Positions 1,749 through 39,092 of a stretch of 63,239 nucleotides of DNA are shown piece after piece. The notes beneath the pieces were generated by a model, which did not search any database, was not told the origin of the DNA, and saw nothing but the letters and a program-made list of their open reading frames with translations. The stretch is taken from positions 326 to 63,564 of the forward strand of contig PFDI01000004.1 in assembly GCA_002772695.1 (NCBI GenBank), in the 5' to 3' direction. Within the stretch, counting starts at the first letter, position 1; every line of letters begins with the position of its first letter. The translations under genes were made by a program, and so were the position numbers. This stretch comes from Candidatus Pacebacteria bacterium CG10_big_fil_rev_8_21_14_0_10_44_54 (GTDB taxonomy: Bacteria > Patescibacteriota > Microgenomatia > UBA1400 > PJMF01).

Positions 1749-1768
1749 ACTATAGGATATTTTATTTG

Positions 1769-1839
1769 ATGCCCGACTTGGATTCGAACCAAGATTGACG
1801 GCTTCAAAGGCCGCTGTCCTGCCATTAGACGATCGGGCA
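1769..1839 (-). tRNA. tRNA-Gln(UUG)
   Basis: Reverse complement TGCCCGA/TCGGGCA acceptor, GCGGC-CT-TTG-AA-GCCGT anticodon arm, TTCGAAT T loop. Confidence 0.94.
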
Positions 1840-1841
1840 AC

Positions 1842-3389
1842 TCAACGGGTATTGTAACATTGCTCCAGATTGATTTCACCGATTAGCTGTGGACCCTCGA
1901 ACACCATGCCAGTGATGAGTTGTACCAAGTCAGCGCCGAGGCGAATCTTCTCTGCCGCGTCTTCTGGTGTGAAAATGCCACCTGTGCCAACGATGACAAA
2001 CCTATTGCCAAATTCTTTTTTGGTAAGAGCAATATATTTGTTTGATTGTTTCCAGGTTGGTTTACCACTGACGTTGCCTCGCAACATTTTCCAGTGTTTG
2101 CGATCGGCAGAAGTCATGGCTGTATTTTGCTTATTTTTGCTCAAATTGCCAAAGATTACCCCGGCAACTTTGTGTTTGGCGGCAACAATGAGGAGTGTTC
2201 TTGTTTCTTGTTCATTTTGGTCGATGGGCATTTTGAGGAAAATCGGTTTTGAGATCTTTAGTTTATCGAGTGCGCGAAGTAGCAACTCTAGTCTGTCAGG
2301 CGTAGTGAATGGTTCGCCCTCAAACGTATTGGGACAACTGATGTTCATTTCGTAGTACAGATGCTCTACGCTTGAGTTTTCGAAGAGTCTAAAGCACTGT
2401 AGGATGTCAAGCATTTGTTGTCTAGTTGAGTCAAAGTGTTTGTTGGTGCTGGCGATGCTAATGCCCGTTGGGATTTCAAATCGTACTTTTTGTAAATCAG
2501 TAATGATGGCTTTGGCACCAAGATTTTTGAGACCTTTGTTTACCAGCAGAGCTTTGGAGTCTGGAAACCTGCCGAGTCGTGGTTTTTGATTTCCTCCATA
2601 TGACTCCAGGGTGACGGTACCAATAGTGTGCCAGCCAAAACCAACAGCCGGAACTGCTCCCGATAATTGTCCGTTGTAATCGAAACCAGCAGAAAGACCA
2701 ATCTTGTTGGGGAAGTTTATGCCAGCCTGCGTCGTGAGAAGCTTGGGGTCTTTTACCGAGAAACAGAGACTAAGAAGTGTTTTGCCCAATTTTGAGTTGC
2801 CCAAAAATTGGCCGAGGTTGAGCATGTTTGTGTGAACAGACTCAGCATCAAAAAGAAAAAAAATTGGTTTGAGCAGGTAGCGGTACACGATTCCAAGTTT
2901 TTTTTGCAAGAGTGATCTAATAAAAAATGCTGGTGATTGCAATGACATTTTGAGGTATATGGTTGTAATCACAAAAAGTGAAATCGAAGTAGCAGCCGAG
3001 ATGAGACAGTACTTACACCATTCGCCGATTGCAAATGCCATGATTGAAATCAGATAGATAGAAAAAACAAAGCCAAAGATCGTGAGAAGCCAAAGAAGTT
3101 CTATCGGTGTAGCTTTAAATCTTCGCCATTTTTTTGAAATCGCTTGCTGATCCAAATCAAAGACATGCAGTAGACTCAAGATAAAAACAGTGATGTAGTA
3201 CATAAAGCCAAGATATGCGACCGGTAATGGGCCGATGTGCGCCCAGGGGCTTGAGAGCACACTGCCGCAGTCAAAGTTGCTGCCACATGTAGGTACTATT
3301 TGTTGCCATTCCTGCCAGCTAATATAGCCGGAATCGAGTATGCCGATAAGCGAGAGTGAAACGAGTAAAAGCGAGAGTAACACTTGCAT
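1842..3389 (-). CDS. pyrD: Fusion of a vitamin K epoxide reductase (VKOR) domain and a membrane-type (class 2-like) dihydroorotate dehydrogenase
   Basis: N-terminal TM helices with CGSNFDC loop, SVLSSPWA and WCKYC; C-terminal FPNKIGLSAGFD, GTVT, KPRLGR, NISCPN, SGKP, GTGGIFT, ADLVQLITG. Confidence 0.9.
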   Translation of the reverse strand: MQVLLSLLLVSLSLIGILDSGYISWQEWQQIVPTCGSNFDCGSVLSSPWAHIGPLPVAYLGFMYYITVFILSLLHVFDLDQQAISKKWRRFKATPIELLWLLTIFGFVFSIYLISIMAFAIGEWCKYCLISAATSISLFVITTIYLKMSLQSPAFFIRSLLQKKLGIVYRYLLKPIFFLFDAESVHTNMLNLGQFLGNSKLGKTLLSLCFSVKDPKLLTTQAGINFPNKIGLSAGFDYNGQLSGAVPAVGFGWHTIGTVTLESYGGNQKPRLGRFPDSKALLVNKGLKNLGAKAIITDLQKVRFEIPTGISIASTNKHFDSTRQQMLDILQCFRLFENSSVEHLYYEMNISCPNTFEGEPFTTPDRLELLLRALDKLKISKPIFLKMPIDQNEQETRTLLIVAAKHKVAGVIFGNLSKNKQNTAMTSADRKHWKMLRGNVSGKPTWKQSNKYIALTKKEFGNRFVIVGTGGIFTPEDAAEKIRLGADLVQLITGMVFEGPQLIGEINLEQCYNTR

Positions 3390-3410: not shown

Positions 3411-4157
3411 TTATTTCTGTAAGACAAGATAATGATTGAGATTTTTTTCTTTGCCGTCAGCATAGAATTCTTTGATAAGTGTTAGGCTAGAATTAGCTAC
3501 TAATTTTTTTCGTTCATTGCGCGTGGTATGGTTGGCATAGCGTAGAGCAGCAGTTCCTCGTTGCCAATCAAGGATATAGTCACCCGATTCAAGTTTGTTT
3601 GTATCAAGCCCAAGAATGTTGGGATCAACTTGTTTTTTTTCGAGTCGTTTTGCCTCGATAAAATCCCAAAAAGTAATCACACAGATGCCAGTTACATTAA
3701 GCTGTTTGCGCAACTTGATAAAAAAAATGGTCCGCAATTTTTCACTTGGTATATGGTGCACGAAACCAAAAACTACCACGATGTCGAATGTTTGATCTGG
3801 GATAACTTGCTGGTTTTGCAACAAGCGTTGGATAATATCTTCATTTTGAAATGTAGTGTTGATGTTGTCAGAAAGGCGTTGTTTTTTTGCAAACTCTAGC
3901 AACTGCTTGTTGTTATCAACCCCAAGATACTCAAACTGCAAATAAGGACACTTTTGAGAAAGAAAGTGAGCAAACCTGCCATTACCGCAAGCCATATCTA
4001 GGACGCGAATGGGTTTATTTCTTAGCTTAGTAATAATTGGAAGTAGTTCGCTCCAGCCATCCCAAGATTTGTTTCTCGATTGACAAAATTCAGCAGCTGC
4101 TTTGTTATAAAAGCTGGTTGTGATATTGGCAAGTCGCTGTAGTGTTTTGTCATCCAT
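3411..4157 (-). CDS. Class I SAM-dependent methyltransferase
   Basis: VLDMACGNGRF motif I, GVD motif II. Confidence 0.85.
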   Translation of the reverse strand: MDDKTLQRLANITTSFYNKAAAEFCQSRNKSWDGWSELLPIITKLRNKPIRVLDMACGNGRFAHFLSQKCPYLQFEYLGVDNNKQLLEFAKKQRLSDNINTTFQNEDIIQRLLQNQQVIPDQTFDIVVVFGFVHHIPSEKLRTIFFIKLRKQLNVTGICVITFWDFIEAKRLEKKQVDPNILGLDTNKLESGDYILDWQRGTAALRYANHTTRNERKKLVANSSLTLIKEFYADGKEKNLNHYLVLQK

Positions 4158-4195: not shown

Positions 4196-6004
4196 ATGTC
4201 TCGATCTACACAGTATACCAGTGACGTAAAACAACTTGATGGGCTGGTGGAAGAGTTGTTGCAGTGTGAAGCTTTGGATCGAACAAAAATTGAGAAGATC
4301 AAAAAAAAGCATGCACGTGTCAATGGTGATGTATTCTCGCAGTCAGCAATTTTGGACCATTACAGGAAGCTTATGGCAAAAGATTCGAGTGCGACACAAT
4401 CAAAAAAACTACTCGCCTTATTACTCAAAAAACCAACGAGAACTTTGTCTGGTGTTGCGCCAATTACCGTTCTCACCAAACCCTTTCCCTGCCCTGGGAA
4501 GTGCATTTTTTGTCCCAATGATGTTCGAATGCCCAAGAGTTACTTGGCCGACGAACCTGGTGCGCAACGGGCCGAAAGAAATTACTTCGATCCCTATTTG
4601 CAAACCTACAATAGGCTGATGGCATTACAAACCATCGGACATGATGTCTCCAAAGCCGAGTTGATTATTCTTGGTGGCACTTGGTCATTTTATCCAGAGG
4701 CATACCAAATTTGGTTCATCAAGGAGTGTTTTCGCGCTCTCAATGAGTTTGCTGAAAGTGTTAACTCGATAGCCGAGGTAGAAGCGGTTTATACCGAGCT
4801 TGAAGCAAACTTACAAACAGGGCGTAGCAATAATCCAAAAAAAAATAAACAACGATTCGCTGCGCAAGAAATTGACGGACTGGATCTAAAAAAATCATAT
4901 AATAAGGTTATTTCACAGTTATACGTCGCACCAGAAAAAATAGGCGGTTTTGATAGATATCAATCGGCCGACTGGTCAGAGCTAGAGGCTCAACAAATGA
5001 CTAATGAGAACTCGAGGATTCGTAATGTCGGTCTGGTGATTGAGACAAGACCAGACTCGATATCGGAAAAAGAAGTTTTGAGAATCAGACGACTGGGTTG
5101 TACCAAGACTCAAATTGGGGTGCAGAGTTTGCAGGACGCTGTGCTTTTAAAAAATAATCGCGGCCATGATGTAGCAGCTACGTGCAGAGCATTTGCTCTA
5201 CTGCGATCTGCTGGGTTTAAGATACATGCGCACTGGATGGCAAATTTGCATGGCTCTTCGGTTGAGATGGACAAACGTGACTTTGATCAGTTATTTGCTG
5301 ATCCAGATTTTTGTCCCGATGAGCTCAAGGTATACCCTTGCTCGCTTGTTGGTAGTGCCGAATTAGCAAAGTATTACAAAACTGGGCAATGGCAGCCTTA
5401 TACGCAGAGTGAATTGTTGGAAGTAGTCTCACATACGCTTACCAATACTCCAGAATATTGTCGGCTCACTCGAGTGATTCGAGACATACCTTCGCAAGAT
5501 ATAGTTGTGGGTAATAAAAAAACTAATTTCCGTGAAATCGCTACAAGCTCAGTAACAAAACTTAGGCTAGTACAGCCTGATATACGGGCTCGTGAAATTC
5601 GCGGAAAATCTGTGAAACGAGATGAGTTACGATTGAAAATGTTTTGCTATAAGACTTCAGTTGGGATAGAGGTTTTTTTTCAACATGTTACAAAACAAAA
5701 TAAAATTGCATCATTTTTGCGCTTGTTGTTGCCACATCAGCCGTCATTTGTGCCGGAACTTGGTAGTTCTGCAGTTGTACGCGAACTACATGTTTATGGC
5801 CAACTCGTTTCCCTTGGCAGCAAGGCAGATACGAAGCAATCACAACATCTGGGATTAGGAAGCGAGTTACTCGAAGTGGCAAAAGTAGAAGCAACCCAAG
5901 CAGGATATAAAAATTTGGCAGTAATTTCGGCAATTGGCACCAAAGAGTACTACAAAAAAAGACACTTTCGAAATGGAAAGTTATATCAGCACTGTGCGTT
6001 GTGA
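4196..6004 (+). CDS. elp3: Elp3-family radical SAM/GNAT tRNA uridine(34) acetyltransferase
   Basis: CPGKCIFCP cluster motif, PKSY, GGT, ETRPD, HWMANL, C-terminal RELHVYG and QHLGLG GNAT motifs. Confidence 0.92.
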   Translation: MSRSTQYTSDVKQLDGLVEELLQCEALDRTKIEKIKKKHARVNGDVFSQSAILDHYRKLMAKDSSATQSKKLLALLLKKPTRTLSGVAPITVLTKPFPCPGKCIFCPNDVRMPKSYLADEPGAQRAERNYFDPYLQTYNRLMALQTIGHDVSKAELIILGGTWSFYPEAYQIWFIKECFRALNEFAESVNSIAEVEAVYTELEANLQTGRSNNPKKNKQRFAAQEIDGLDLKKSYNKVISQLYVAPEKIGGFDRYQSADWSELEAQQMTNENSRIRNVGLVIETRPDSISEKEVLRIRRLGCTKTQIGVQSLQDAVLLKNNRGHDVAATCRAFALLRSAGFKIHAHWMANLHGSSVEMDKRDFDQLFADPDFCPDELKVYPCSLVGSAELAKYYKTGQWQPYTQSELLEVVSHTLTNTPEYCRLTRVIRDIPSQDIVVGNKKTNFREIATSSVTKLRLVQPDIRAREIRGKSVKRDELRLKMFCYKTSVGIEVFFQHVTKQNKIASFLRLLLPHQPSFVPELGSSAVVRELHVYGQLVSLGSKADTKQSQHLGLGSELLEVAKVEATQAGYKNLAVISAIGTKEYYKKRHFRNGKLYQHCAL

Positions 6005-15863: not shown

Positions 15864-16554
15864 TAGGTGGAGAAATCTCAAGTATGTTGGCGTCACCAAG
15901 TTGCTCAAGCGAGTAAGGACCAAATTTTGTTCTGACCAGCTTGACAACCTCATAGCCGATCCGGCGCATCATGCGACGAATCTCATGTTTTTTGCCTTCT
16001 GACAAAGTGATTTCAAGTAGCGTGGTGCTTTCGTCAGTATCTAGAATTTCGGCAGAATCTGGCGCAACATAACCCTCTTTGAGCTTGACGCCCCTCTTGA
16101 GATGTTCGAATGCCAAAAAACTAACTTTTCCCGCTACGGTTACTTCATATGATTTCTTTACATCAAACGATGGATGAAGCAATGTGTTGGCATACTCGCC
16201 GTCGTTGGTTAGCAAGAGTAGTCCTTCGCTCTCTTTGTCGAGCCTGCCCACGGGAAAGAGGCGTTCTTCGATATCATTTGGAACCAGTGACAAGACCGTT
16301 TTTCGCCCATGTTCATCTGAGGTAGAAGAGACTAGGCCAGCTGGTTTGTAGACAATGAAGTAGCGTAGTTTTTCTGGTTTTGTAATGTTTTTGTTGTCAA
16401 AAGTGATTGTATCGGTTGTTGTATCGACCCGTTGGCCAATGTGAGCTGGTTTGCCATTGACCTGCACCCGGTTGGCAAGAATCATGTTCTCTGCCTTTCT
16501 TCGTGACGCAACTCCTGCTTGTGCAAGTGCTTGTTGTAATTTCATGTTCGGCAT
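15850..16554 (-). CDS. rRNA pseudouridine synthase (RsuA/RluB family, S4 domain)
   Basis: AGVASRRKAE S4 domain, GRLDKESEGLLLLTNDG, EGKKHEIRRM. Confidence 0.93.
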   Translation of the reverse strand: MPNMKLQQALAQAGVASRRKAENMILANRVQVNGKPAHIGQRVDTTTDTITFDNKNITKPEKLRYFIVYKPAGLVSSTSDEHGRKTVLSLVPNDIEERLFPVGRLDKESEGLLLLTNDGEYANTLLHPSFDVKKSYEVTVAGKVSFLAFEHLKRGVKLKEGYVAPDSAEILDTDESTTLLEITLSEGKKHEIRRMMRRIGYEVVKLVRTKFGPYSLEQLGDANILEISPPISST

Positions 16555-16576
16555 GGTGATAGTATACTCTCTCGAT

Positions 16577-17617
16577 ATGCAAAATTGGCAAAGAGCACTT
16601 CAAGATTCCGGCTTTAAGCATAAGCTGCTGTTGAGAGAAAAAGTAATCGACACGATTCGTGAGTTTTTCAAATCACAGAAATTTCACGAGGTTGAAACCC
16701 CTTTGTTGGTGCAGCATGCCGACCCAGAGACCAGCATTTCACCATTCATCTCGTGCTTGGATCAAATAGACAAAAAATATCAAGGATTTTTGACTACCAG
16801 TCCTGAATTTGCTATGAAAAAGTTGCTTGCCGGTGGGTTTGGCAATATTTTTCAGATTTGCAAGAGCTTTCGCAATGGCGAGCCTATTAGTTCTCGCCAC
16901 AATCCTGAGTTTACTATTCTTGAGTGGTATAGAACTGAAGCTGATTACACCGATATAATGGATGATTGTGAAGCTTTGCTGAAATTTATCGCTGCTGAGC
17001 TCGGATTGACATCACTGCAATACCAGGGTGTTGAGTACGTTCTCAATCAGACATGGGAGCGACTTTCTGTCGCCGAAGCATTTGCCAAGTATGCTGGAAT
17101 AGATGAAGTAACGTTGCTTAATCCTACTGCCTTTTTGCAGGTGGCAAAAGAAAAAGGTTATGCAGTAGCCCCAGAAAATACTTTTCAAGAATTATTCGAT
17201 CAGATTTTTGTTAATGAAATCGAACCGCGACTTGGGCAGAACACGCCAACAATTCTCTATGATTACCTCGCTTCTCAAGCAGCCTTGGCTCGTAAGAAAC
17301 CAAGTGACCCTCGCTATGCCGAGCGATTTGAGTTTTACATAGCTGGCATCGAGCTTGGTAATGCATTTTCAGAACTTGCCGATTGGCAAGAACAGCAAGC
17401 GCGGCTGGAGGAGCAAAACGTACAGCGCAAAAAACTTGGCTTGCCAATTGTCGGAGTCGACCAGAATTTTATTACAGCGATCAAATCTGGTATTCCGCAA
17501 ACTGGTGGTATTGCGGTTGGCGTTGATCGGCTTATCATGTTATTTGCAGATGAGACAAACATTGCAAATACGCTCTTATTTCCCGCAGCTGATGTGTTTT
17601 CACTTGAGGACGCATGA
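16577..17617 (+). CDS. epmA: EF-P lysine ligase EpmA (GenX/PoxA); start reassigned to ATG 16577
   Basis: TSPEFAMKKLLA, FRNGE..HNPEFTILEWY, ELGNAFSEL, GVDRL; no anticodon-binding domain; adjacent to efp. Confidence 0.9.
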   Translation: MQNWQRALQDSGFKHKLLLREKVIDTIREFFKSQKFHEVETPLLVQHADPETSISPFISCLDQIDKKYQGFLTTSPEFAMKKLLAGGFGNIFQICKSFRNGEPISSRHNPEFTILEWYRTEADYTDIMDDCEALLKFIAAELGLTSLQYQGVEYVLNQTWERLSVAEAFAKYAGIDEVTLLNPTAFLQVAKEKGYAVAPENTFQELFDQIFVNEIEPRLGQNTPTILYDYLASQAALARKKPSDPRYAERFEFYIAGIELGNAFSELADWQEQQARLEEQNVQRKKLGLPIVGVDQNFITAIKSGIPQTGGIAVGVDRLIMLFADETNIANTLLFPAADVFSLEDA

Positions 17618-26676: not shown

Positions 26677-27429
26677 TTAGGTTTCATTGAGTATCTCCAA
26701 TACTTTATTAGCAAGCTCTCTTTTCTCAATCAAGAACTTGGCATACTTTGATTGATCGGGGCGATTCAGTCCCACAGTAAAAGTTCTCAGTCCTGGCTGT
26801 TTATTTTCATTAGCGGTCAGTTTCAAAAACTCTGGTGCAGGAATACAAAAAACGTGTTCATGGATGTCGCCCTGAGTGAGATCAAAGTAAACGAAAACCA
26901 TGAGCATCCGCCTTTTATTGATGATGTTTTTTTCTTTGACAGTTGATACAAAGCCGTTGTTTCTATCGCCAAAGGTTGATTTAACCTGGATATAGGCAAC
27001 TTCTAACACACCTCTTTTTTTTACGATAATATCAATACCCTCATCATCACTGATCGGTCTGTAGCAAGAAAGCCCAGTATCACCATAGAGAGTGATCAGC
27101 TCAGCAACTCTTGCCTCAGCAATGTCGCCCTTTTGCTTGGTGTTGAGGTCACTCGTGACACGATGTTTTACGATCTGAGCCTTGGCACTTACTGATTTTT
27201 GAGTACCCTCAGCCCGCAGACCATAAAATCCTGGCTCACTACGATAAAAAATAGAGCTATCTCCATTCTTTTGAATGTCCATCGAGATTCGGGCGTTCAT
27301 GGTAGCCCAAGGTGTTGATCCCTCTGACTGCAAGCCAAGTTTCAAGGCTCGTTCAGTTATTTCTTTGTAGTGAATTGGTTTTTTTGCTTCACTGATGACT
27401 CTTTGGGCGAGAGATAAAAATGTTTCCAT
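26677..27429 (-). CDS. HARE-HTH domain fused to a PD-(D/E)XK endonuclease
   Basis: AQRVISEAKKPIHYKEI..TPWATMNARIS..FYGLR; QKGDIAE, DDEGIDIIV, YIQVKS. Confidence 0.8.
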   Translation of the reverse strand: METFLSLAQRVISEAKKPIHYKEITERALKLGLQSEGSTPWATMNARISMDIQKNGDSSIFYRSEPGFYGLRAEGTQKSVSAKAQIVKHRVTSDLNTKQKGDIAEARVAELITLYGDTGLSCYRPISDDEGIDIIVKKRGVLEVAYIQVKSTFGDRNNGFVSTVKEKNIINKRRMLMVFVYFDLTQGDIHEHVFCIPAPEFLKLTANENKQPGLRTFTVGLNRPDQSKYAKFLIEKRELANKVLEILNET

Positions 27430-29342
27430 TAGACCCTTTCAATTACTTCATCCCCAGCGATGTTTCTGACTTTGATTCGCAAGGGTTTTTTGCTCATGGT
27501 GACTGTGCCATCCCAGAACTTCTTGGTTTGTTCGCCATCCACAATCATATAACCATTTTTATCAATCTTGATCTCGTGGTCAGATACCCATACACCGTCA
27601 GTATTGGTACAGTCCACACTGATAAACTCAATCAGCTCCAAGCCCTCATCACTGATCTCAATCCTTTTTTGGTTCGCCGTTTTCTTGCCATTGAACTCAG
27701 TAATTTTCTGAATCAAAACATCAGAGATGAAGCGGTCAAAAGCAATGGTGTGTTTGCCAGCTTGTTCTTTGACGGTGTACTCCACCACATCAGGACTGAC
27801 GATCAAATCAATCAGCTCTTTGAGGTCTTTGAAAACAAACTGAACGGGTTTACCATCCGCATCTCGCAAGTCATAGTCTTTTCTCATTTTGTCGATCTCT
27901 GCTTGACCAGTGATGTCCACGCTACACACCACTACTTTACTGATTCCATCCAACTTGGCGGTTTCGTCCATGATCTTGCTAAACAAAGAAGGGTTGAGAA
28001 TGGCTTGCCCTTTGTCTTTGAGGTTGGGTATCCAGCAAGGGCAGACTGTTCCTTTGTCAGTGATTGCACCAAACCAGAATGAGCCAAAGTCGTGCGTGGT
28101 AGTTAGTCCTGGGACGATGGTTGCAAGTTTATCCATTGTTTGCTGTGGGTTGCGGAACAGGTCGATACCATCCTTTATTTTGAGGATGTCAAAGCTCGCA
28201 CCTGCTTCTACAAAGCGGTCACGCATGGTCTGAATAGCATTGATACCCACATCGGCAGTGATAAACTTTCTACCCAGATCATGAGCGACTTTTGCGGTTA
28301 CGCCAGAACCACCGAAAAAGTCTACAACTACCAAGCCCTCATTGGAGCTAGCTTTGATGATGCGTTGGAGTAAGGCTTCTGGTTTTTGCGTGGCATAGTC
28401 AGTTTTTTCGCTTAGGTTTTTGGGGTCAACAGCCTTTATATTCCAAACAGAGTCAAGTGTATTTCCCTCTAATGCGAGGATAACATCGTTTTTTCCAGGT
28501 TTTCTGTGATTTTGTTTCACAAATCTATCATAGTAACCCTTGAATCGTGAGTCAGTTTCAGGATAATTTGCTCCCGTGATTTCGTTATTTTCATTTAGGT
28601 ATGAGTTCCACCGTGTGAAGTCGATAGTTTGCTCAACATTACTATCTTTCAGCAAGTTGAAAGAGTAGTCCGATGTTTTGGAGTAGAAAAAAATTACGTC
28701 ATGTTTTCTTGGAAAGTATGAAGATACCTGACCTTGATAGGTCTGATAATGCCATACAATTTCATTTCTAAAGTTCTCTTCACCAAACACTTCATCAAGA
28801 AGTACTTTTGCATAATGACCTATATGCCAGTCTAAATGGACATAGATACTAGCAGTATCACTCATCACTTCTTTGATTGCGAGCAATCTCTCATACAACC
28901 AGTTGAGGTAGTCTTCTTTCTGCCAAATATCACCGTACATGGTTTCTTCTAGAACTTGCAAGTCTTTGTTGTCAACTTCTTCACCTGCTTGAGATTGGAG
29001 TTTTGCTTGAGCTTCTTCTAGCTTGGCAACGAGTTTAGGATTTTGTCTGATATAGATTTTCTTGGCGTAATTAGCCCCACTTGCAAACGGTGGGTCAATA
29101 TAGACCAGATCAACCGTAATACTTTTCTCTTTTAGATAGGCACAGGCGTTGAGGCAGTCACCGTGAATGAGTAGGTTATCCTCAGACTTTTTACCTACTT
29201 TTTCGATCAGCTCAGTTTCAAAGTACGGCATCCCTTGCAGTTGAAAATCCTTAGCTGAGAGCTGGCGGTGGTATCGCAAGAATGGCAAGACAGCTTGTCC
29301 TCTCAGAGGTTCAACTTTATATGGAATGTATTTGATCGGCAT
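27429..29342 (-). CDS. mod: Type III R-M methyltransferase (Mod, beta-class adenine MTase)
   Basis: YIDPPF motif IV precedes DFFGGSG motif I; YATQKPE. Confidence 0.9.
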   Translation of the reverse strand: MPIKYIPYKVEPLRGQAVLPFLRYHRQLSAKDFQLQGMPYFETELIEKVGKKSEDNLLIHGDCLNACAYLKEKSITVDLVYIDPPFASGANYAKKIYIRQNPKLVAKLEEAQAKLQSQAGEEVDNKDLQVLEETMYGDIWQKEDYLNWLYERLLAIKEVMSDTASIYVHLDWHIGHYAKVLLDEVFGEENFRNEIVWHYQTYQGQVSSYFPRKHDVIFFYSKTSDYSFNLLKDSNVEQTIDFTRWNSYLNENNEITGANYPETDSRFKGYYDRFVKQNHRKPGKNDVILALEGNTLDSVWNIKAVDPKNLSEKTDYATQKPEALLQRIIKASSNEGLVVVDFFGGSGVTAKVAHDLGRKFITADVGINAIQTMRDRFVEAGASFDILKIKDGIDLFRNPQQTMDKLATIVPGLTTTHDFGSFWFGAITDKGTVCPCWIPNLKDKGQAILNPSLFSKIMDETAKLDGISKVVVCSVDITGQAEIDKMRKDYDLRDADGKPVQFVFKDLKELIDLIVSPDVVEYTVKEQAGKHTIAFDRFISDVLIQKITEFNGKKTANQKRIEISDEGLELIEFISVDCTNTDGVWVSDHEIKIDKNGYMIVDGEQTKKFWDGTVTMSKKPLRIKVRNIAGDEVIERV

Positions 29343-29354
29343 ATTATATTTCCT

Positions 29355-32222
29355 TTATGTTGTTGTGTTACTAAAGTAGTGATTGATTCTGTCTGTGATG
29401 GCTTGACGGTGGTAATCAAGGTCTTTGCCGTCTTCGAGATAAAGGAAGTCAAACGCTTTGGCATTGAGATCAACAAAGGTGTTTTCCATGAACTGTCTGA
29501 TGTCAGTAAAATCGTGAGCGAGGTGTGATCCTTTTGTTTCAATGATGAGTGTTTTGGCAATCTTGTTCCCTTTACGCTCAATCACTACGAAGTCGGGGGT
29601 GTACTGATCTTGAATCAGCTTCCACTGGTCATTGATTTTTTTGTAAATCTTGATTTTGAATGTAGAGAGGAAGCGGTCACCATTGAAGTAGACCTCAAGC
29701 TGGCTTTTCTGAAAGGCACTGAGGTTGAAGATATGTTCCAGAATCTTTCTCTCGAAGTCACTTGCCGTGAACTCGTATGGAATGTAGTGGAAAGAGCGGT
29801 CTTTGTACGTGATAGGGAGTTTAGACTGTTTGATCTCATCAATCTTGGCTTCAATTCCCGCAGAGAAAGTAGCGTCACTACCCATGGCAAGTTTCGTAGC
29901 TTCAAGCTGTTTGATTTTATCGCTCTCAGAGGCAGTGATGCCATCAATAGGTGTTTTTTGCTTGTCATAGTCAGCAATCTTATTGATGAAGTCAATGTTA
30001 TCGGGGTAGATTTTAGCTTTAGTTGAGATAGGGTTTTTGTTGATGTCAGCTACTAGCCAAGATACAGATTCAGGTTTGAGCGATTCGTGGACTCTCACCG
30101 CTGATTGTGGCGTAAAGCTCAAGTGAATAGCAGTAATGATCCTACTTAGAGAATATCCAGAGCGTAGCTCACCAGCTTGTGTCAGCAATCCATAGACATC
30201 AAAAAGACTTTTTCTATATTGATGTAGTTGGCTGTAAAATACTCCCCCAAAGGACGACTTGAAAATCAGATTGAGGAACTCAGAAAAGCTGAGTTTCTGG
30301 TACGCATAATCAAGCGGTGAATGGCTGACACTAGAAGTATCATCAAAGTCTAGCCCAGTTCTAGTGCTAGCTATCTCTGGCACGAAATATGGATTGTCTT
30401 TACTGGCTTTGAGCTTGGTAGTTAACTCAGTCAAAGCAGGTTCGGGGTTCGCCTCAACTACTTCATTCAATACCTCATATTCAAGAAGCAGTTGTTTGTA
30501 CTCTAGCGGTGGCAACTTGAGGTACTTTCTACGGTCAACCCGTAGTAAGGTAGGTTCTTCTTCCTTGCCTGCCTCGAACTCTTTGATGCTGATCTTGTGC
30601 TTATCACCCAGCTCTTTTTCCAGGTGGCGGTAGTTTGTTTGATTGAGGTAGATCAAGCCTGTTTCAGTTTGAGCATCATCTACTTCTCGCAAGCAACGGC
30701 ATGAGGTTTGCAACACCATGTTTTTTGGGCTGTCACCCTCACCAGACAACACTACACCCGTGAGCGACTGACAATCCCAGCCCTCTTTGCCGATTTGAAC
30801 CAGTAGAATGACCCGTTTATTAGAGTATGGGGTATCCAGCTTGCTAAACTCTAGGTCTGCTTCTTTATCAAGAGTATAGGTTTTACCTGACTTTGATTTC
30901 TTTGACTCACCGTAGTATTTGAAAACCTCAGAGGAATCTAAGCCTTTCTCAGCGTAGAAGTTCAATACAATAGGCATGACTTCTTCCTCTAATCGCTCGA
31001 TATTGGCACAGTAGATGGCGAGTTTCGGCTTCCTGCCGTCCTGGTAGGTCTTGTCATAAAACTCGGCGTAAAAGTCCTCTAAGCTGGCTTTGACGATGGT
31101 TTCAGTATGGCTAGAGAAGCTCTTGATAACGGGTTGTTTGAGAAAGTTTCGCACGCCATCTTTTAGCTCGTAGTGGTAAACCGTGCTAGGGATTTGATCG
31201 AGGGCAAGAGTAAGTGAACCAGCCGTTATCTTTCGTTTGAAGTACGGCGTGCCAGTAAAACCGATGATATTGATGGTGTTCCCCTGATTGAACTGGTTAT
31301 TGATGACGAACTTGAGCTTATTTTCCTCTTTTTGGATGTGATGCACCTCATCAATCAAGATGCTTAGATTTGGCACTTGGGCAAGTTTATTTCGTAATTC
31401 GTTTTCAAGATTGCTTTTTTCATCCCCGTTTACTTCAAATAGCGTTCCCTTGTAGGGGTCTTCTACTACCTTATCCAAGACAACTTTTTCGGCATTGGTG
31501 ACAAAGACATAGCCACTTGGGTTAGCCTGTTGCAAGCACTCTTGAACTTTACGAGCATTAGGGTTGTTGATTTTGTTGCTTCTTTTGGCGGTCTTAGCAA
31601 CATCTAACACCACGAACTTTATTTGCTTTTTGATTTTGGTGGCAATATCAACGGGCAGTATCCAGGTTGGATCAAAGCGTTCAATGCTCCGCAGAGATGG
31701 CACAACCGAGCTTTTTAGTCCACTCGGAGCAAAAATCAAGAAGTTCTTGGCGAAACGGTCATCAGTGTTATTGAGGTTGAAATACAAGTCGATATAGATC
31801 ATGGAAGCCATGACAAAGGTTTTGCCCGCTCCCATTGGCAAGCTCAATAAGACGTTAGAAATATGGTTATAGCCACCAAAGAGATCAACAAAAAAGCCCT
31901 CTAGCTCTTGGGGACTGGCTGTTTTGGCGAACTTCTCTAGCTTTTTGTTTTCCAACTCTTGAGAAATATGCACCAGCAGAGTTGTCAGGCTATCACCCTC
32001 TGTATCTGGGTAACGCTCTTTGAATACCACGACCAGCGGTTTATTGTCTGTCACACACTTGAGCCAAAGGTACACCTTGAGAGCCTCGATTTGGGCATCT
32101 CGGAGCTTTCCAGTAGCTTCAATATGCCTGAGGATGTACCCCGCAACTGAGTTCTTATTTTCTTTTTCGGCATCCGACCACTCGAATGCTCTACTGGTTA
32201 GGTAGTTTTTTATAATGTTCAT
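29355..32222 (-). CDS. res: Type III restriction enzyme Res subunit (SF2 helicase plus PD-(D/E)XK)
   Basis: LPMGAGKT, DEVHH, FTGTP, IGKEGWD, C-terminal YTPDF..IIETKG. Confidence 0.88.
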   Translation of the reverse strand: MNIIKNYLTSRAFEWSDAEKENKNSVAGYILRHIEATGKLRDAQIEALKVYLWLKCVTDNKPLVVVFKERYPDTEGDSLTTLLVHISQELENKKLEKFAKTASPQELEGFFVDLFGGYNHISNVLLSLPMGAGKTFVMASMIYIDLYFNLNNTDDRFAKNFLIFAPSGLKSSVVPSLRSIERFDPTWILPVDIATKIKKQIKFVVLDVAKTAKRSNKINNPNARKVQECLQQANPSGYVFVTNAEKVVLDKVVEDPYKGTLFEVNGDEKSNLENELRNKLAQVPNLSILIDEVHHIQKEENKLKFVINNQFNQGNTINIIGFTGTPYFKRKITAGSLTLALDQIPSTVYHYELKDGVRNFLKQPVIKSFSSHTETIVKASLEDFYAEFYDKTYQDGRKPKLAIYCANIERLEEEVMPIVLNFYAEKGLDSSEVFKYYGESKKSKSGKTYTLDKEADLEFSKLDTPYSNKRVILLVQIGKEGWDCQSLTGVVLSGEGDSPKNMVLQTSCRCLREVDDAQTETGLIYLNQTNYRHLEKELGDKHKISIKEFEAGKEEEPTLLRVDRRKYLKLPPLEYKQLLLEYEVLNEVVEANPEPALTELTTKLKASKDNPYFVPEIASTRTGLDFDDTSSVSHSPLDYAYQKLSFSEFLNLIFKSSFGGVFYSQLHQYRKSLFDVYGLLTQAGELRSGYSLSRIITAIHLSFTPQSAVRVHESLKPESVSWLVADINKNPISTKAKIYPDNIDFINKIADYDKQKTPIDGITASESDKIKQLEATKLAMGSDATFSAGIEAKIDEIKQSKLPITYKDRSFHYIPYEFTASDFERKILEHIFNLSAFQKSQLEVYFNGDRFLSTFKIKIYKKINDQWKLIQDQYTPDFVVIERKGNKIAKTLIIETKGSHLAHDFTDIRQFMENTFVDLNAKAFDFLYLEDGKDLDYHRQAITDRINHYFSNTTT

Positions 32223-32506: not shown

Positions 32507-33673
32507 ATGAGCATAAAGTTTGATTGGTCTTACTTTATCCACATGGTAAAGCAAGACTTACTACTAGAATACCTTACTAAGGTCTGGCAACTAGACCTTA
32601 CGGTTGGTGATTTTGAAACAGAAGATGATCGAGTTGCCTTTTTACGAGCTGAGATCGAAAAATTAGCTACTGATCGGTTCGATGACATCCAGATTGATCT
32701 GACAAAGGTTCGCCAGCTATCAACCAAGCCAGGTGTGCAACGGCTCATTTTGATCGCTAACAATAGTAATCAGCAGGTTGACGACCCTTACGTTGACCTA
32801 AACGTCTACAATAGAGCCTTATTTTACCGAGTCAATTATCACGATATTTTCCAAACAGCCTACGTTTTGAACGAAGTACAACCCCGCAAAAAGAAGTTGC
32901 GACATGGTTTGAAGTCTGTGTCAGTCAAAAATCTCATGGGCAAGACTACCGAATTAGCTACTCAGATCAGCGAATACCTGACAAAAAACGAAAAAAGAGG
33001 TGAAGCCTGTAAAGTTGATAGTCACGATTTTGGTAGCTCAATCTGCTTCACCGCATACCCCACCAACTACCCTCAAGACTTACTCTTTTTTGATGGCGAG
33101 CAGTGGAAAAACGAGGTGAACAGACCTGGTTTTCAGATAACCTTTCTTTATTATCCAGAGGGCGGACGACTCGAAATTGACTGCCAGGGTAGCTGGCAGA
33201 AGAAACACGCCTTGATGCAGATTTTCAACACCGCTGTTTTGGAGAGCGATGTGCCAGTTCCGCTCTATCAGTTGCAATTCAACCTGGACAAATTAGTTGA
33301 AGACGGCTTTGAGATGGTGATTGACCCTCAAGATATGGGTGAAGAACCTCAACTCAAGTCAATTCGCCTCAAGAGAAGACACAGCAATACCCCAGAGCGG
33401 TACACCATCGAAATTGACAACGGTACTGGTGTTACGCCAATTAGAGATGCGATGAACCACCGTAGATTGACTTTGGAGTACTACGAAGTTGACCAGGCTA
33501 AGATCAGTTTCAAGTTTCCTGGTTTGCAAAAAACTGGCTGGGTTACAGTTGACTTATCACTGCCTGACGGCAATTCACCTGGGAGCGATGAAAAAGATGA
33601 AAAAGCCCAGAATTACCTTGAAAAATGGGGAGTTATCAGCCGTGAAGACGAATCCAGCCCATCTACTGACTGA
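32507..33673 (+). CDS. Hypothetical protein (388 aa), first gene of a coupled pair
   Basis: Long ORF; no catalytic motif recognised. Confidence 0.8.
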   Translation: MSIKFDWSYFIHMVKQDLLLEYLTKVWQLDLTVGDFETEDDRVAFLRAEIEKLATDRFDDIQIDLTKVRQLSTKPGVQRLILIANNSNQQVDDPYVDLNVYNRALFYRVNYHDIFQTAYVLNEVQPRKKKLRHGLKSVSVKNLMGKTTELATQISEYLTKNEKRGEACKVDSHDFGSSICFTAYPTNYPQDLLFFDGEQWKNEVNRPGFQITFLYYPEGGRLEIDCQGSWQKKHALMQIFNTAVLESDVPVPLYQLQFNLDKLVEDGFEMVIDPQDMGEEPQLKSIRLKRRHSNTPERYTIEIDNGTGVTPIRDAMNHRRLTLEYYEVDQAKISFKFPGLQKTGWVTVDLSLPDGNSPGSDEKDEKAQNYLEKWGVISREDESSPSTD

Positions 33674-34715
33674 GATGGTTCTACATCCCAGCACCTCTCT
33701 TTCTCAGCAGGAAGCTGACCAGTTTTTAGGTTCTCATCGTTCTTTTTTTCAAGATACCAGCATGATTGTGGACGCTCCCTCAAGAAAGTGGGCAAATTGT
33801 CTGAGTTGTGGTAAGACGCATGAGGTTACGCCCCTCAATGGACTGCTTATATTGTCTTGCTCAGAGCAAGGGGTTGAGGATGTCATTATCACGGCTGATG
33901 AGCTAAAGAGTGTTCGATTCAATCTTAGCGGTTTTCACTCTTGGCTACAAAGTCTGTTTTCTTTGCAAGGCAACATCGAAGCCTCTGAGGACAAGGTCTT
34001 ACTTGGTCAGGGGACGGTGAATGGCAAGCAAAGGCTGTTTATTTTCAGTCAGGATAACTCGCCTCAAGCCAGAGTGAAGCTATGCCAAGATCACCGAGCC
34101 AACCAACCAGTTATTTTGTACCTCAGTACTACCCTCAACAATCATAATCAGGGCTATGACATCAACTTGACTGAGTACCTGGTAGTACAAGAAAACAATC
34201 TGAGTATTGATGTCAGCTCGGCGTTGGGTGTGATTGAAGACACTGTCCTGCCTTTGGAGAACGACACCCAGCTAACCTCTAGCAATTTTGCTATCGAGTT
34301 GAAGCTCACGGATGACAAAATTGTGCTAACTGGCACAGCTCTTGGTAGTTCATATCCAGCGTTCAAAGCCAAGAAAAAGCGAAGCACTGCCATATCCAGA
34401 CTATTGAGAACCCTACTCAAGTTGCATGAAAGCGACAAAGAAACGACCCCGAAAACATATAAGCAAAGTGTGCTTGAGGCGAACTACATTGACCCTCGCA
34501 AAAACAAACAAAATGACCTTGCACAAATGGATCTCAGTCAAGATAAGCGACCACTGAGCAACCTCTGCTCATCCTTATTGCCATACTTTTTCACACATCG
34601 GTATGACAAAGACGATGGCTTAGTGATCGAGTTCAAATCAGCCATCTCTCAAGAGGACTGGAACGGTCTTTCAGACTCAGAAAAGCAAAAGATTTTGGCT
34701 TCAAAGGCTGAATAG
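33642..34715 (+). CDS. Hypothetical protein with an N-terminal CxxC..H..C putative Zn finger; GTG 33642 (or ATG 33675) start
   Basis: GGGAG upstream of GTG; CLSCGKTHE..LSC; overlaps the upstream gene's stop. Confidence 0.75.
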   Translation: MKTNPAHLLTEMVLHPSTSLSQQEADQFLGSHRSFFQDTSMIVDAPSRKWANCLSCGKTHEVTPLNGLLILSCSEQGVEDVIITADELKSVRFNLSGFHSWLQSLFSLQGNIEASEDKVLLGQGTVNGKQRLFIFSQDNSPQARVKLCQDHRANQPVILYLSTTLNNHNQGYDINLTEYLVVQENNLSIDVSSALGVIEDTVLPLENDTQLTSSNFAIELKLTDDKIVLTGTALGSSYPAFKAKKKRSTAISRLLRTLLKLHESDKETTPKTYKQSVLEANYIDPRKNKQNDLAQMDLSQDKRPLSNLCSSLLPYFFTHRYDKDDGLVIEFKSAISQEDWNGLSDSEKQKILASKAE

Positions 34716-34739
34716 CCAACCTCGTCAATCCCTATTTCC

Positions 34740-34810
34740 TGCATTTAGTTGCATTTAGCAACGCCCCTTAGTTGTGTTCTTCTGTGATTTTTGCGTTTAC
34801 GTGCATTTAG
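34740..34810 (+). repeat. Two pairs of 9-bp direct repeats at 10-bp spacing upstream of the DUF5659 operon
   Basis: TGCATTTAG at 34740, 34750 and 34802; TGCGTTTAC at 34792. Confidence 0.6.
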
Positions 34811-34875
34811 CGTTTTGGTTCAAAAATCGCACTTATCATTGACCCATCAAACAAAAATGAGTCAAAAGGATAAGC

Positions 34876-35124
34876 ATGAAAAACGCACACAAATACTTTA
34901 CCACCTACGACCTAAACCTATCAGCAGTATTGGTTTCGCAAGGTTTTACTTTAGAAGAAATCGAAAAATCTGGCGGTACTAAAGGCCTCTTTTACTTCAA
35001 AAAGAGCGACAAACTTCTAGTAGTCATTGATAGCTACTGGAAAAACCAACTCCAAATCTCTCCGCAAACGCTTTTTAGCAGTTTGAAGTCTATCAAAAAT
35101 CGCTTGTATAGCGATTGGAAGTAA
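34876..35124 (+). CDS. DUF5659-like small protein
   Basis: FTTYDLNLSAVLVSQGF..FYF..YWKNQLQISP..LKSIKNRLY. Confidence 0.7.
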   Translation: MKNAHKYFTTYDLNLSAVLVSQGFTLEEIEKSGGTKGLFYFKKSDKLLVVIDSYWKNQLQISPQTLFSSLKSIKNRLYSDWK

Positions 35125-35129
35125 AAGCC

Positions 35130-35324
35130 ATGTTGAGCCGTGCCTCAGTGGCGAAGTTCCAGCACATCTACTTCCAAGAGTACGGCATTGAGCTGGATGA
35201 GCAGACAGCCTACGAGCTGGCGAATAACCTCGTCAACCTGTACCGAAGTGTCTACTTACCAGACACAAAAAATATAAGTAAGCAGTATGAAAAAAACACA
35301 TCAACTCAGAAGAATCAAAGCTAA
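35130..35324 (+). CDS. Small helical protein of LSR elements (candidate directionality factor)
   Basis: MLSRASVAKFQHIYFQEYGIELDEQTAYELANNLVNLY; a homologue is present in the tRNA-Gly islet. Confidence 0.7.
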   Translation: MLSRASVAKFQHIYFQEYGIELDEQTAYELANNLVNLYRSVYLPDTKNISKQYEKNTSTQKNQS

Positions 35325-35706
35325 GAAGTCCTACTCCTCTATGGAGTTGGCTAACTTACTTGGCGTTCATGTCCAAACCGTCCGAACTTGGGCAAGCAAT
35401 GGTCTTGCTCCGCTGAGTTCCGAAGTCCATCGACCACTATTTTTAGGTCAGACCGTCAAATCTTATCTCTCGCAACAACAAAATGCCCGCAAGGTGAAGC
35501 TCCAAGCTGGTGAGTTTTACTGCCTACGGTGTCGAAAAGCAGTTACACCCGCTTTAGTGACCGAGGTAGATCGCCACGTCCTCATTGGCAAGCAAAAAGA
35601 TTCGATTTTACTCACCGCTCACTGTCCACAGTGCGATTGCCCTGTCAACAAGTTTTCTAGCCGAATATCAACTACACAGAAAGGAAAATATGCTACTAAC
35701 GCATAA
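35287..35706 (+). CDS. HTH DNA-binding protein with a C-terminal 4-Cys Zn ribbon
   Basis: YSSMELANLLGVHVQTVRTWASNGL; YCLRCRK...HCPQCD. Confidence 0.8.
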   Translation: MKKTHQLRRIKAKKSYSSMELANLLGVHVQTVRTWASNGLAPLSSEVHRPLFLGQTVKSYLSQQQNARKVKLQAGEFYCLRCRKAVTPALVTEVDRHVLIGKQKDSILLTAHCPQCDCPVNKFSSRISTTQKGKYATNA

Positions 35707-36186: not shown

Positions 36187-37302
36187 ATGTCAAAAATCAA
36201 AGACAAAAACGAACGTATCAAACGCAAATATCTCAACTGGCTACAAGAGGCTGAGGGCTTCTCAGAGAAATCAATCACAGCAGTAGAAACAGCCCTCTGG
36301 AAGTATGAGGAGTTCAGTAGAGATTCAGACTACAGCACGTTCAATCACAAAATCGCTGAGCAGTTCAAGAAGCACCTGGTGAACAACAAAAACAGAATAA
36401 GCAACAAGACACTCTCGCTAAGATCGCAATATCACGTTCTCAGGCACGTTCGCAATTTCTTGACTTGGCTATCTGGTCAAGTTGGGTATAAGTCAAGAAT
36501 CTCGACTTACGATGTCCAGTACTTGCAGTTGAGCAAGAAAGATCGGCGGGTGGCGACCTCTGCCTCACTTCCCAAGTACCCAACCCTTGAGCAGATCAAA
36601 CAGCTTTGTAGCTTTTCAGTTCAAACTGAAATTGATCAGCGGGATCGGGCGTTGATAGCCTTTACTGCTCTAACAGGTATGCGGGATCAGGCGATTGTTA
36701 CCTTACCACTGGGTTGTTTTGACCAAGAGAAAATGCTGGTGCAACAGCTTCCTAGCAAAGGTGTTCAGACTAAGTTCAGCAAGGATATTTACACCACCCT
36801 TTTTCATGTTGATGAAACGCTCGTGAGCTACTTCTTGAAGTGGTATGACTATCTGAAAACTGAAAAGCACTTTGGGCTTGATGATCCAATGTTTCCAAGT
36901 ACGGCGGTTGGTTTTGTTGGTGAGAATCATCATGCTTTTACCTCTATGGGTGTCAGCAAAGAGTTTTGGGCAGATACAAACCCGATGCGTAAGATTTTTC
37001 AAGCTCGAAGCAAACAAGCGAACGTACCTTACTACACCCCCCATAAGTTTAGGCACTTTATCATCAATGAAGCCCAGAAGCACATCACTAGCATTGAACA
37101 ACTCAAGGCACTAAGCCAGAATCTCGGTCATGAAAATATCAGCACGACCTTTCACGGCTATGGTGCAATTGATACTTACAGAGTCAATGAGTTAGTTAGC
37201 TCGATTGATTTTACAGGACTCCCTCAGAACCGAGCTGAAGAAGCTCAGCTTGAGAGAATTGCTGATCTTGTGGCTAAAAAATTGGGTAGAACTGAGCTAT
37301 AA
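36187..37302 (+). CDS. Tyrosine recombinase/integrase
   Basis: LTGMR (R), TKFSK (K), HKFRH (HxxR), LGH, catalytic Y in FHGYG. Confidence 0.9.
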   Translation: MSKIKDKNERIKRKYLNWLQEAEGFSEKSITAVETALWKYEEFSRDSDYSTFNHKIAEQFKKHLVNNKNRISNKTLSLRSQYHVLRHVRNFLTWLSGQVGYKSRISTYDVQYLQLSKKDRRVATSASLPKYPTLEQIKQLCSFSVQTEIDQRDRALIAFTALTGMRDQAIVTLPLGCFDQEKMLVQQLPSKGVQTKFSKDIYTTLFHVDETLVSYFLKWYDYLKTEKHFGLDDPMFPSTAVGFVGENHHAFTSMGVSKEFWADTNPMRKIFQARSKQANVPYYTPHKFRHFIINEAQKHITSIEQLKALSQNLGHENISTTFHGYGAIDTYRVNELVSSIDFTGLPQNRAEEAQLERIADLVAKKLGRTEL

Positions 37303-37309
37303 TGATTGT

Positions 37310-37395
37310 GTTGACCCAGCTTGCAATGGTGCATAAAAAAAGGCAGTTCTGCCAGCGGATCGCATGATTGTTGGGTCAACCAGAACTGTCTTTTT
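37310..37395 (+). promoter_or_regulatory. Structured leader between the two recombinase genes
   Basis: AAAAAGGCAGTTCTG (37337-37351) pairs with CAGAACTGTCTTTTT (37381-37395); GTTGACCCAGC (37310-37320) pairs with GTTGGGTCAAC (37370-37380). Confidence 0.55.
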
Positions 37396-37397
37396 AT

Positions 37398-39080: not shown

Positions 39081-39092
39081 GCTAATACCACC
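39018..39092 (-). tRNA. tRNA-His(GUG) with G-1; integration target
   Basis: G-GTGGTAT/ATACCAC-C, CCGCT-CT-GTG-GC-AGCGG anticodon arm, TTCGAAT. Confidence 0.95.

Follow-up and report, generated by a model that had tools for sequence, protein, structure and literature searches.

A VKOR-dihydroorotate dehydrogenase fusion in Candidate Phyla Radiation bacteria and its possible coupling through a shared quinone

One gene in the 63,239-nucleotide stretch analysed here (contig PFDI01000004.1 of assembly GCA_002772695.1, from Candidatus Pacebacteria bacterium CG10_big_fil_rev_8_21_14_0_10_44_54; hereafter the window) almost certainly encodes a real bifunctional fusion, in a tiny-genome bacterium from the Candidate Phyla Radiation (CPR), of a vitamin K epoxide reductase homologue (VKOR) with a dihydroorotate dehydrogenase (DHODH) of class-2 type. 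A reading made from the sequence alone had described one continuous open reading frame (ORF) holding all four VKOR cysteines, and this is what we found: the frame spans 1842..3389 and the cysteines lie at residues 35, 41, 125 and 128. The protein is apparently an undescribed, lineage-wide domain fusion. No description of a VKOR-DHODH fusion was found in the literature searched, where papers mentioning both proteins concern ferroptosis or inhibitor cross-reactivity, and public databases list the fusion under names as generic as 'dihydroorotate dehydrogenase (quinone)' or 'dihydroorotate dehydrogenase/uncharacterized membrane protein'.

Pfam places VKOR (PF07884) at residues 8-143 of the fusion (E=2.2e-27; 96.3 bits against a cutoff of 27.5; profile positions 2-134 of 134) and DHO_dh (PF01180) at residues 217-507 (E=1.8e-42; 145.9 bits), the class-2-type DHODH part as a whole spanning about residues 168-508. 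In a sequence search of the PDB, the N-terminal part matches the Synechococcus VKOR structures 3KP9 and 4NV2/4NV5/4NV6, and the best matches of the DHODH part are the class-2 enzymes of M. tuberculosis, H. pylori, A. baumannii and E. coli. Neither a further VKOR nor a further DHODH was found in the 63-kb window. The features of the gene are as follows (TM, transmembrane; AF2, AlphaFold2; FMN, flavin mononucleotide; aa, amino acids; nt, nucleotides):

1842..3389, minus strand: VKOR-DHODH fusion ORF, ATG start, 515 aa, stop codon at 1842-1844
2940..3389, minus strand: VKOR domain, residues 1-150, four TM helices (PF07884, hydropathy and positive-inside rule, AF2)
3267..3287, minus strand: Cys pair C35-x5-C41 (CGSNFDC, residues 35-41) of an extracytoplasmic loop (conservation; topology predicted)
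3249-3251, minus strand: VKOR signature Ser47, at least 90% conserved
3006..3017, minus strand: VKOR active-site CXXC, C125-K-Y-C128 (CKYC, residues 125-128), at the outer end of TM4
2745..2939, minus strand: linker and class-2 N-terminal helical (quinone-tunnel) domain, residues 151-215
2832-2834, minus strand: quinone-tunnel His186
1845..2744, minus strand: DHODH FMN TIM-barrel, residues 216-515 (PF01180, Foldseek, invariant residues)
2676..2678, minus strand: Tyr238 (AGFDY versus AGLDK), where E. coli has its FMN-contacting Lys66 (alignment)
2328..2345, minus strand: NISCPN catalytic loop, residues 349-354, with Cys352 at nt 2334-2336

Distribution and the VKOR half

The fusion is widespread. 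In a similarity search of a collection of 5.8 billion proteins, both PF07884 and PF01180 occur in 116 of the best 120 clusters (at 90% identity), whose identity to the query is 51-80%. When 1.84 billion representatives at 50% identity were scanned exhaustively with HMMER, several fragments and about nine deeper full-length fusions at 37-45% identity were added (among them P0122, P0123, P0124, P0127, P0129, P0133, P0135 and P0149). These 8 divergent representatives all retain NISCPN and the two pairs of cysteines, and Pfam confirmed VKOR plus DHO_dh in the four that were scanned (P0122, P0133, P0135, P0149). Conservation across CPR, which the sequence-only reading had made a touchstone of its claim, is borne out from the best clusters to the deeper ones. 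All named carriers are Patescibacteria, labelled Pacebacteria, Paceibacterota, Microgenomates, 'Patescibacteria group' or candidate division WWE3, and pairwise identity among 118 full-length fusions ranges from about 46% to 90%. The window itself is of the same kind, with 71-75% identity and conserved gene order relative to metagenome-assembled genomes (MAGs) labelled Paceibacterota; its other genes are also CPR-like (glycolysis, an F-type ATP synthase, a class I lysyl-tRNA synthetase, few biosynthetic genes).

The assemblies that bear the fusion come from NCBI, JGI, ENA and Logan and include contigs of 0.3-1.4 Mb, among them BOKR01000001.1 (1.17 Mb), a 1.37-Mb contig of ENA ERZ15185638 and the WWE3 contig JAAXWF010000001.1 (536 kb). 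An assembly or frameshift artefact is ruled out by the recurrence of the same architecture on many independent contigs and assemblies.

The VKOR half has kept its redox residues. C35 is retained in 116 of the 118 full-length fusions and C41, C125 and C128 in every one; all four belong to the 16 of 150 VKOR columns that are at least 98% conserved, in a domain with a mean identity of 47%. Ser47 lies six residues past the second loop cysteine, which we take to be the spacing of the family's signature Ser/Thr. Hydropathy reveals four hydrophobic TM segments and AF2 models helices at 2-28, 57-81, 95-121 and 126-149. The lysine plus arginine content is 4.6 in loop 2 and 4.8 in the segment after TM4 versus 1.4 in loop 1, so that by the positive-inside rule the N terminus, loop 2 and the C-terminal end of VKOR are predicted to be cytoplasmic, and the two Cys-bearing loops to lie outside. 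This predicted topology puts the cysteines of VKOR on the outside and the DHODH on the inside, as is canonical for either family. In every sequence and topology feature that we checked the fusion agrees with the VKOR family, and its thiol:quinone activity is putative.

With stand-alone bacterial VKORs (such as that of M. tuberculosis) and with the Synechococcus VKOR-thioredoxin protein (3KP9, 4NV2) the fusion shares the four-helix bundle, the loop Cys pair, a Ser six residues past the second of these cysteines, and the CXXC at the start of TM4; the C-x5-C spacing of the loop is presumably also that of the Synechococcus protein. The latter, however, has a fifth TM helix that places its thioredoxin-like partner outside, on the side of the cysteines, whereas VKOR-DHODH lacks a fifth helix and its partner is a cytoplasmic flavoenzyme across the membrane.

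Could the VKOR half nevertheless be a degenerate, redox-dead anchor, or the whole fusion a product of assembly or gene calling? We consider either extremely improbable. The former can call on the general precedent of TM anchors on DHODHs and on nothing further, and it is opposed by cysteines conserved at 98-100% and a serine at 90% or more within a domain otherwise at 47% identity; the latter would have had to arise on many independent NCBI, JGI, ENA and Logan contigs.

The junction between the two halves is constrained in length. From the CXXC to His186 there are 58 aa in 104 of the 118 fusions and 57 aa in 12, and this stretch has the lowest sequence identity (37%) despite its near-fixed length. 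The helix that follows TM4 (residues 155-173) is amphipathic, with a hydrophobic moment of 0.24 and a mean hydrophobicity of 0.18, rather than a fifth TM helix. Run on the 118-sequence alignment, AF2 supplied the structure prediction that the sequence-only reading had looked to, returning for the two-domain chain a mean predicted local distance difference test score of 93.8 and a predicted TM-score (pTM) of 0.89, a pTM that is hard to reach unless the relative placement of the domains is confidently predicted. Foldseek found no solved structure spanning both domains. In the model the domains look rigidly joined, through a connection of near-fixed length.

A Cys-type class-2 DHODH and its partners

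Alignments to the M. tuberculosis and H. pylori DHODHs begin at fusion residue 172, corresponding to their residues 24 and 13, and hence include the class-2-specific N-terminal helices. AF2 places the helices of this domain at 155-177, 182-197 and 200-209, and in Foldseek the C-terminal two-thirds of the model align with class-2 DHODHs of 335-350 residues over some 343-346 columns (target-normalised TM-score 0.84-0.88, probability 1.00). The description of the DHODH as class 2-like with an N-terminal helical domain is therefore borne out. Across the 118 fusions Y169, F178 and H186 are invariant and K174, D181 and E183 nearly so; in the order Y169, K174, F178, D181, E183, H186 these presumably equal Tyr2, Arg7, Phe11, Asp14, Glu16 and His19 of E. 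coli PyrD. R274 is invariant and R271 80-95% conserved, the GN-x2-PR-x2-R motif being kept, and we take His186 and Arg271 to match human His56 and Arg136. In the barrel N349, S351, C352, P353, N354, K386, N415 and the GTGG motif are all invariant, which means that the substrate and FMN residues N349, N354, K386 and N415 are kept.

The assignment to class 2 is also reflected in profile scores. The best NCBIfam models for the fusion are all 'quinone-dependent dihydroorotate dehydrogenase' (class 2), while class 1 models score far under their cutoffs (TIGR01037, 43.7 versus 270 bits; NF005574, 38.6 versus 269; NF002702, 36.3 versus 301). The fusion resembles class 1A/1B enzymes in its Cys base, but neither in the helical domain, which is present, nor in profile score; conversely, it lacks the Ser base typical of class 2. 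Column by column, its NISCPN loop matches NVSSPN in M. tuberculosis and NISSPN in E. coli, which puts Cys352 at the position of the class-2 catalytic serine (E. coli Ser175).

The sequence-only reading had singled out this cysteine at the catalytic base. The residue is indeed there, conserved in 118 of 118 fusions, but it is not a peculiarity of this protein: NISCPN is present in 33 of 33 related loci, fused or unfused, and in all 18 unfused DHODHs, which come from Saccharibacteria, Taylorbacteria, Paceibacterota and free-living Bacteroidota. An adaptation of Cys352 to the fusion is accordingly ruled out, and because unfused relatives share it the cysteine is no evidence about the fusion in either direction. 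Fused and unfused members have further motifs in common (AGFDY, VNKGL(K/R), KMPI, GNLxK), and the unfused enzymes of Litoribacter, Balneolaceae (both Bacteroidota) and Saccharibacteria exceed the quinone-DHODH cutoffs of NF003652 (at 275-286 bits) and TIGR01036 (at 202-218). Judged from its motifs, the DHODH half belongs to a distinct Cys-type class-2 subfamily.

With the bacterial class-2 PyrD enzymes (E. coli 1F76, M. tuberculosis 8OFW, H. pylori 6B8S) the fusion shares the FMN TIM barrel, the two-helix quinone-tunnel domain, the Y-x4-K-x3-F-x2-D-x-E-x2-H and GN-x2-PR-x2-R motifs, and N172, N177, K217 and N246 (E. coli numbering). These enzymes differ from it in having Ser175 for its Cys, Lys66 for its Tyr and N-R-M-G for its VNKG, and the fusion adds 150 N-terminal residues of VKOR. 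The unfused Cys-type enzymes (NF003652 / PRK05286.2-5; Saccharibacteria, Taylorbacteria, Paceibacterota, Litoribacter, Balneolaceae), which are 38-45% identical to it over the DHODH part, differ in lacking VKOR and in their usual neighbours, genes for glyceraldehyde-3-phosphate dehydrogenase (GAPDH) and for the pentose-phosphate pathway. The FMN-contacting lysine (E. coli Lys66), conserved in class 1 and class 2 alike, is a tyrosine throughout the subfamily, and the adjoining N-K-G-L-K loop contains an invariant Lys285 and a near-invariant Lys288, either of which may represent a relocated active-site lysine. A subfamily with a Cys base and Tyr238 breaks the textbook rule that class 2 has Ser and class 1 Cys; no biochemical characterisation of it was found in the literature searched. 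Judging from the residues retained in each, both domains of the fusion are quite likely to be catalytically competent.

A neighbour-joining tree of the DHODH domain, computed without bootstrap and indicative only, gathers the fusions into one clade. Its sister is the unfused DHODH of locus L010, 57% identical and with the same upstream neighbours. Two loci with separate genes nest inside the fusion clade. In L009 the genes for a VKOR of 158 aa and a DHODH of 360 aa share an ATGA overlap, as is classic for translationally coupled genes; in L011 the two lie within 1 kb of each other, with one Crp-family gene between them. That linkage is kept after fission argues that selection acts on the VKOR-DHODH pairing. 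The more distant unfused relatives (38-45% identity) belong to Saccharibacteria, Taylorbacteria and Paceibacterota as well as to two lineages of free-living Bacteroidota, and VKOR is absent within 10 kb on either side of their DHODH genes. Saccharibacteria, in which VKOR is a single-copy core gene in oral members (PMC9040727), also have MAGs that carry an unfused Cys-type DHODH.

Some of these loci have misleading titles. MAGs titled 'uncultured Pseudomonadales bacterium' (L003, L005, L006, L009, L012) carry the CPR-type fusion in a CPR-type gene order, and in one more MAG of that gene order, L010 (titled 'Pseudomonadales bacterium'), the sister DHODH stands unfused; the titles look wrong because the gene order matches CPR loci.

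Other additions to Cys-type DHODHs were also seen. P0133 bears VKOR plus extra TM segments, the DHODH of P0134 has a C-terminal cytidylyltransferase-like domain, and P0228 has a C-terminal extension of 360 aa. A further candidate for an N-terminal fusion, L025 (517 aa), was set aside as a probable ORF over-extension: in the sister species L029 the protein is 365 aa long, and in L025 the match to DHODH starts at residue 155.

Candidate mechanisms

The sequence-only reading had proposed that the fusion may couple dihydroorotate oxidation to thiol-disulfide redox across the membrane, or channel a scarce, possibly host-derived quinone. From the features of the protein this is plausible. Functional coupling of the two domains via a shared quinone, beyond co-anchoring, has in our estimate a probability of about 0.5; in its favour we count the conservation of both redox sites, the rigid-looking geometry, the linkage of the split genes and the placement of VKOR outside and DHODH inside.

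In such an arrangement VKOR would serve as the integral-membrane anchor of the DHODH, its TM4 running into the amphipathic tunnel helices of the cytoplasmic FMN-dependent enzyme, and both domains would draw on the same membrane quinone. The quinone pocket of VKOR would sit next to the CXXC, close to the outer leaflet, and the tunnel of the DHODH would open at the inner leaflet, so that quinone and quinol would have to flip between the sites; direct electron tunnelling from one domain to the other is unlikely. The quinone would probably be scavenged, as CPR are reported to be without its synthesis: quinone-biosynthesis genes are missing from CPR genomes, some of which have cyo operons (PMC8407418).

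Both enzymes are normally quinone reducers, and any real coupling therefore requires one of them to run backwards. One candidate route would lead from dihydroorotate through FMN, quinone and the VKOR cysteines to an external disulfide of DsbA type, making VKOR the quinol-reoxidising outlet of the DHODH. The relevant potentials are about -258 mV for orotate/dihydroorotate, -74 mV for menaquinone, -120 mV for DsbA and +30 mV for fumarate. On these values the route is downhill, and is the sole downhill coupling with orotate/dihydroorotate as the cytoplasmic couple. We rank it first among the coupled models because dihydroorotate, the stronger reductant, would push the pool towards its reduced state and force VKOR into reverse if no quinol oxidase were present. 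Electron flow specifically in this direction can be put forward tentatively, at well short of even odds. If the coupled model holds, there would be a functional likeness to DsbD/CcdA and DsbB, which pass electrons across the membrane between a cytoplasmic couple and outside cysteines, DsbD in the reducing direction and DsbB, like VKOR, in the oxidising one. DsbD and CcdA differ in employing cytoplasmic thioredoxin and neither quinone nor flavin, and have no sequence relationship to the fusion.

A number of observations weigh against coupling. With the sites on opposite faces of the membrane, the fusion would provide proximity and a 1:1 stoichiometry and not a wired path. The direction of electron flow is a purely thermodynamic argument from textbook potentials. 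To our knowledge all characterised VKORs move electrons from cysteines to quinone, and none is known to run in reverse. The window protein falls just under the NCBIfam equivalog cutoffs (NF003652, 255.9 versus 267; TIGR01036, 193.4 versus 200). The same DHODH subfamily has other N-terminal partners, namely a PAP2 phosphatase domain (P0145) and, in P0254, a multi-TM region of about 340 residues with no Pfam match, and no VKOR was found near the L010 DHODH, sister to the fusion clade.

The gene neighbourhood counts on the same side. Neither in the window nor in the 40 related loci, each viewed over about 20 kb per genome and thus weak evidence, did we find pyrB, pyrC, pyrE or pyrF, a quinone-biosynthesis gene or quinol oxidase (men/ubi, cyd/cyo), or a DsbA/thioredoxin-like gene adjoining the fusion. 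With Pyr proteins of E. coli and B. subtilis as queries, tblastn gave no matches, a result that is uninformative as a negative. De novo nucleotide synthesis is reported to be missing from 93% of Patescibacteria genomes (bioRxiv 10.64898/2026.06.21.733656), hence dihydroorotate may be unavailable in the carriers; a near-complete pyrimidine pathway has been reported in one Parcubacterium (PMC5220378).

A simple alternative is co-anchoring only. VKOR, reoxidising a DsbA-like protein, and DHODH, oxidising dihydroorotate, would then be parallel donors to a common quinone pool, itself reoxidised non-enzymatically by O2, by an unrecognised oxidase or by the host, and the fusion would do no more than tether the peripheral DHODH beside another quinone user. 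The canonical motifs and topology kept in both domains fit this, as do the attachment of PAP2 and other TM segments to the same subfamily and the unlinked VKOR and DHODH genes of the L010 sister lineage and of many other CPR. Eukaryotic class-2 DHODHs offer a parallel: the mitochondrial enzymes (human, rat) likewise have an N-terminal TM anchor directly before the tunnel helices, although theirs is a single inert helix and not a redox enzyme, and their base is Ser. Taken with the PAP2 and TM fusions, this indicates that gain of an N-terminal membrane anchor is recurrent and supports anchoring as a reason, at least in part, for the VKOR fusion. The cyo-type quinol oxidases of some CPR (PMC8407418) would furnish an outlet for the quinol. 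A passive tether, however, does not predict a fixed linker length, a rigid two-domain model or linkage after fission. It also leaves the reoxidation of two quinone reducers unexplained in lineages reported to be without an electron-transport chain, which is complete in no Patescibacteria genome (PMC7507113). We regard co-anchoring as the whole explanation as possible, though on the unlikely side.

The reverse coupling would carry electrons from external thiols through VKOR, quinone and FMN to a cytoplasmic acceptor, either a fumarate-like enoate or orotate, with the DHODH as a repurposed orphan. That the domain may be an orphan is suggested by the absence of pyr genes from all 40 loci together with the 93% of genomes without the pathway, the Cys base recalls the fumarate-using class 1A enzymes, and the Lys66 equivalent is Tyr. 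A self-contained disulfide-forming machine of this sort would support the oxidative folding of secreted proteins without a respiratory chain, and there is a precedent in anaerobic E. coli, where DsbB passes electrons to menaquinone and on to fumarate reductase. Against this, orotate as acceptor would make the flow uphill (by about 140 mV), a fumarate-like acceptor alone making it downhill, and in known class-2 enzymes the step from quinol to FMN runs in the unfavourable direction. The Cys and Tyr, moreover, are shared with unfused Bacteroidota quinone DHODHs and hence are not adaptations to the fusion, and all the orotate-binding Asn residues are retained, suggesting the normal substrate. Reverse coupling is, in our view, improbable.

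Genomic surroundings and meaning of the fusion

The fusion gene is flanked as follows (SAM, S-adenosylmethionine):

3411..4157, minus strand: SAM-dependent methyltransferase, separated by a 21-nt gap upstream of the fusion gene
1768..1839, minus strand: tRNA-Gln(UUG), beginning 2 nt past the fusion stop codon

In the close clade the constant neighbours are Elp3, the SAM methyltransferase, RecQ, MgsA, a MazG-like protein and a VIT1 transporter. The methyltransferase (3411-4157, minus strand) and Elp3 (4196-6004, plus strand) form a divergent pair that stands beside the fusion in 11 of 13 close-clade loci. The methyltransferase is a generic class I enzyme whose best NCBIfam models (UbiG, TehB, MenG/UbiE) score about 30 bits, far under their cutoffs, while its partner, at 461 bits against a cutoff of 350, is a true Elp3; for the latter reason a role in tRNA modification is more likely, and the methyltransferase is probably not part of the redox system. 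Elp3 (radical SAM/GNAT, tRNA U34 modification) and the methyltransferase resemble a wobble-modification pair of Elp3/Trm9 style.

A regulator of the Crp/Fnr family (cNMP_binding plus HTH_Crp_2) adjoins VKOR/DHODH in three divergent CPR lineages (L011:11095-11754, minus strand; L034:9249-9896, minus strand; L038:11558-12106, plus strand). The three proteins are homologous (25-28% identity), differently oriented and without FNR-type cysteine clusters, and may be dedicated regulators of the fusion gene. A short-chain flavodoxin is encoded a few kb from VKOR/DHODH in L011 (13276-13719) and L038 (14211-14669) and about 10 kb away in L009 (at about 2-364), and between the VKOR and flavodoxin genes of L011 lies one for an L-lactate dehydrogenase (328 bits; cutoff, 304). 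The genes around the unfused Cys-type DHODH of CPR (L013-L033) are not pyr genes but those for GAPDH, RpiB, ribulose-phosphate epimerase and transketolase.

Elsewhere in the window, a cluster resembling restriction-modification or defence systems occupies 26677-32222 (minus strand) and encodes a HARE-HTH plus PD-(D/E)XK endonuclease, a 637-aa N6/N4 DNA methylase and a 955-aa helicase of ResIII/SNF2 type. At 36187-39080 (plus strand) a tyrosine integrase lies directly beside a large serine recombinase (resolvase plus Zn-ribbon), the two abutting tRNA-His (39017-39091), with which the serine recombinase ORF as listed overlaps; the four ORFs before the integrase (32507-35706) have no Pfam match. 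A mobile element has probably integrated here, with this region as its edge. The window also encodes both a class I (archaeal-type) lysyl-tRNA synthetase and a class II synthetase of D/K/N type, at 16451-17617 (plus strand) and 52917-54563 (minus strand), respectively.

CPR make up a large share of bacterial diversity, and they are reported to lack an electron-transport chain, quinone synthesis and, for the most part, de novo nucleotide synthesis, yet keep VKOR and a quinone-type DHODH. In several classes the fusion sharpens this puzzle by welding together two quinone reducers for which no quinol oxidase is known. Independent action of the two domains would make the finding an ordinary one. 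The boldest reading makes the fusion a transmembrane redox conduit, complete in itself and built on a quinone that is captive and scavenged, running either from dihydroorotate to outside disulfides or oxidants, or from secreted-protein thiols to a cytoplasmic acceptor; we hold it to be rather doubtful. Were it true, bacteria without a respiratory chain or quinone synthesis could run quinone-dependent chemistry, and the fusion would provide either the first VKOR shown to work as a quinol oxidase or the first domain of DHODH fold to serve a VKOR as terminal reductase. As a single expressible protein of 515 residues, it bears on the supply and recycling of quinone in CPR, on their extracytoplasmic disulfides and on the role of DHODH in their pyrimidine synthesis.

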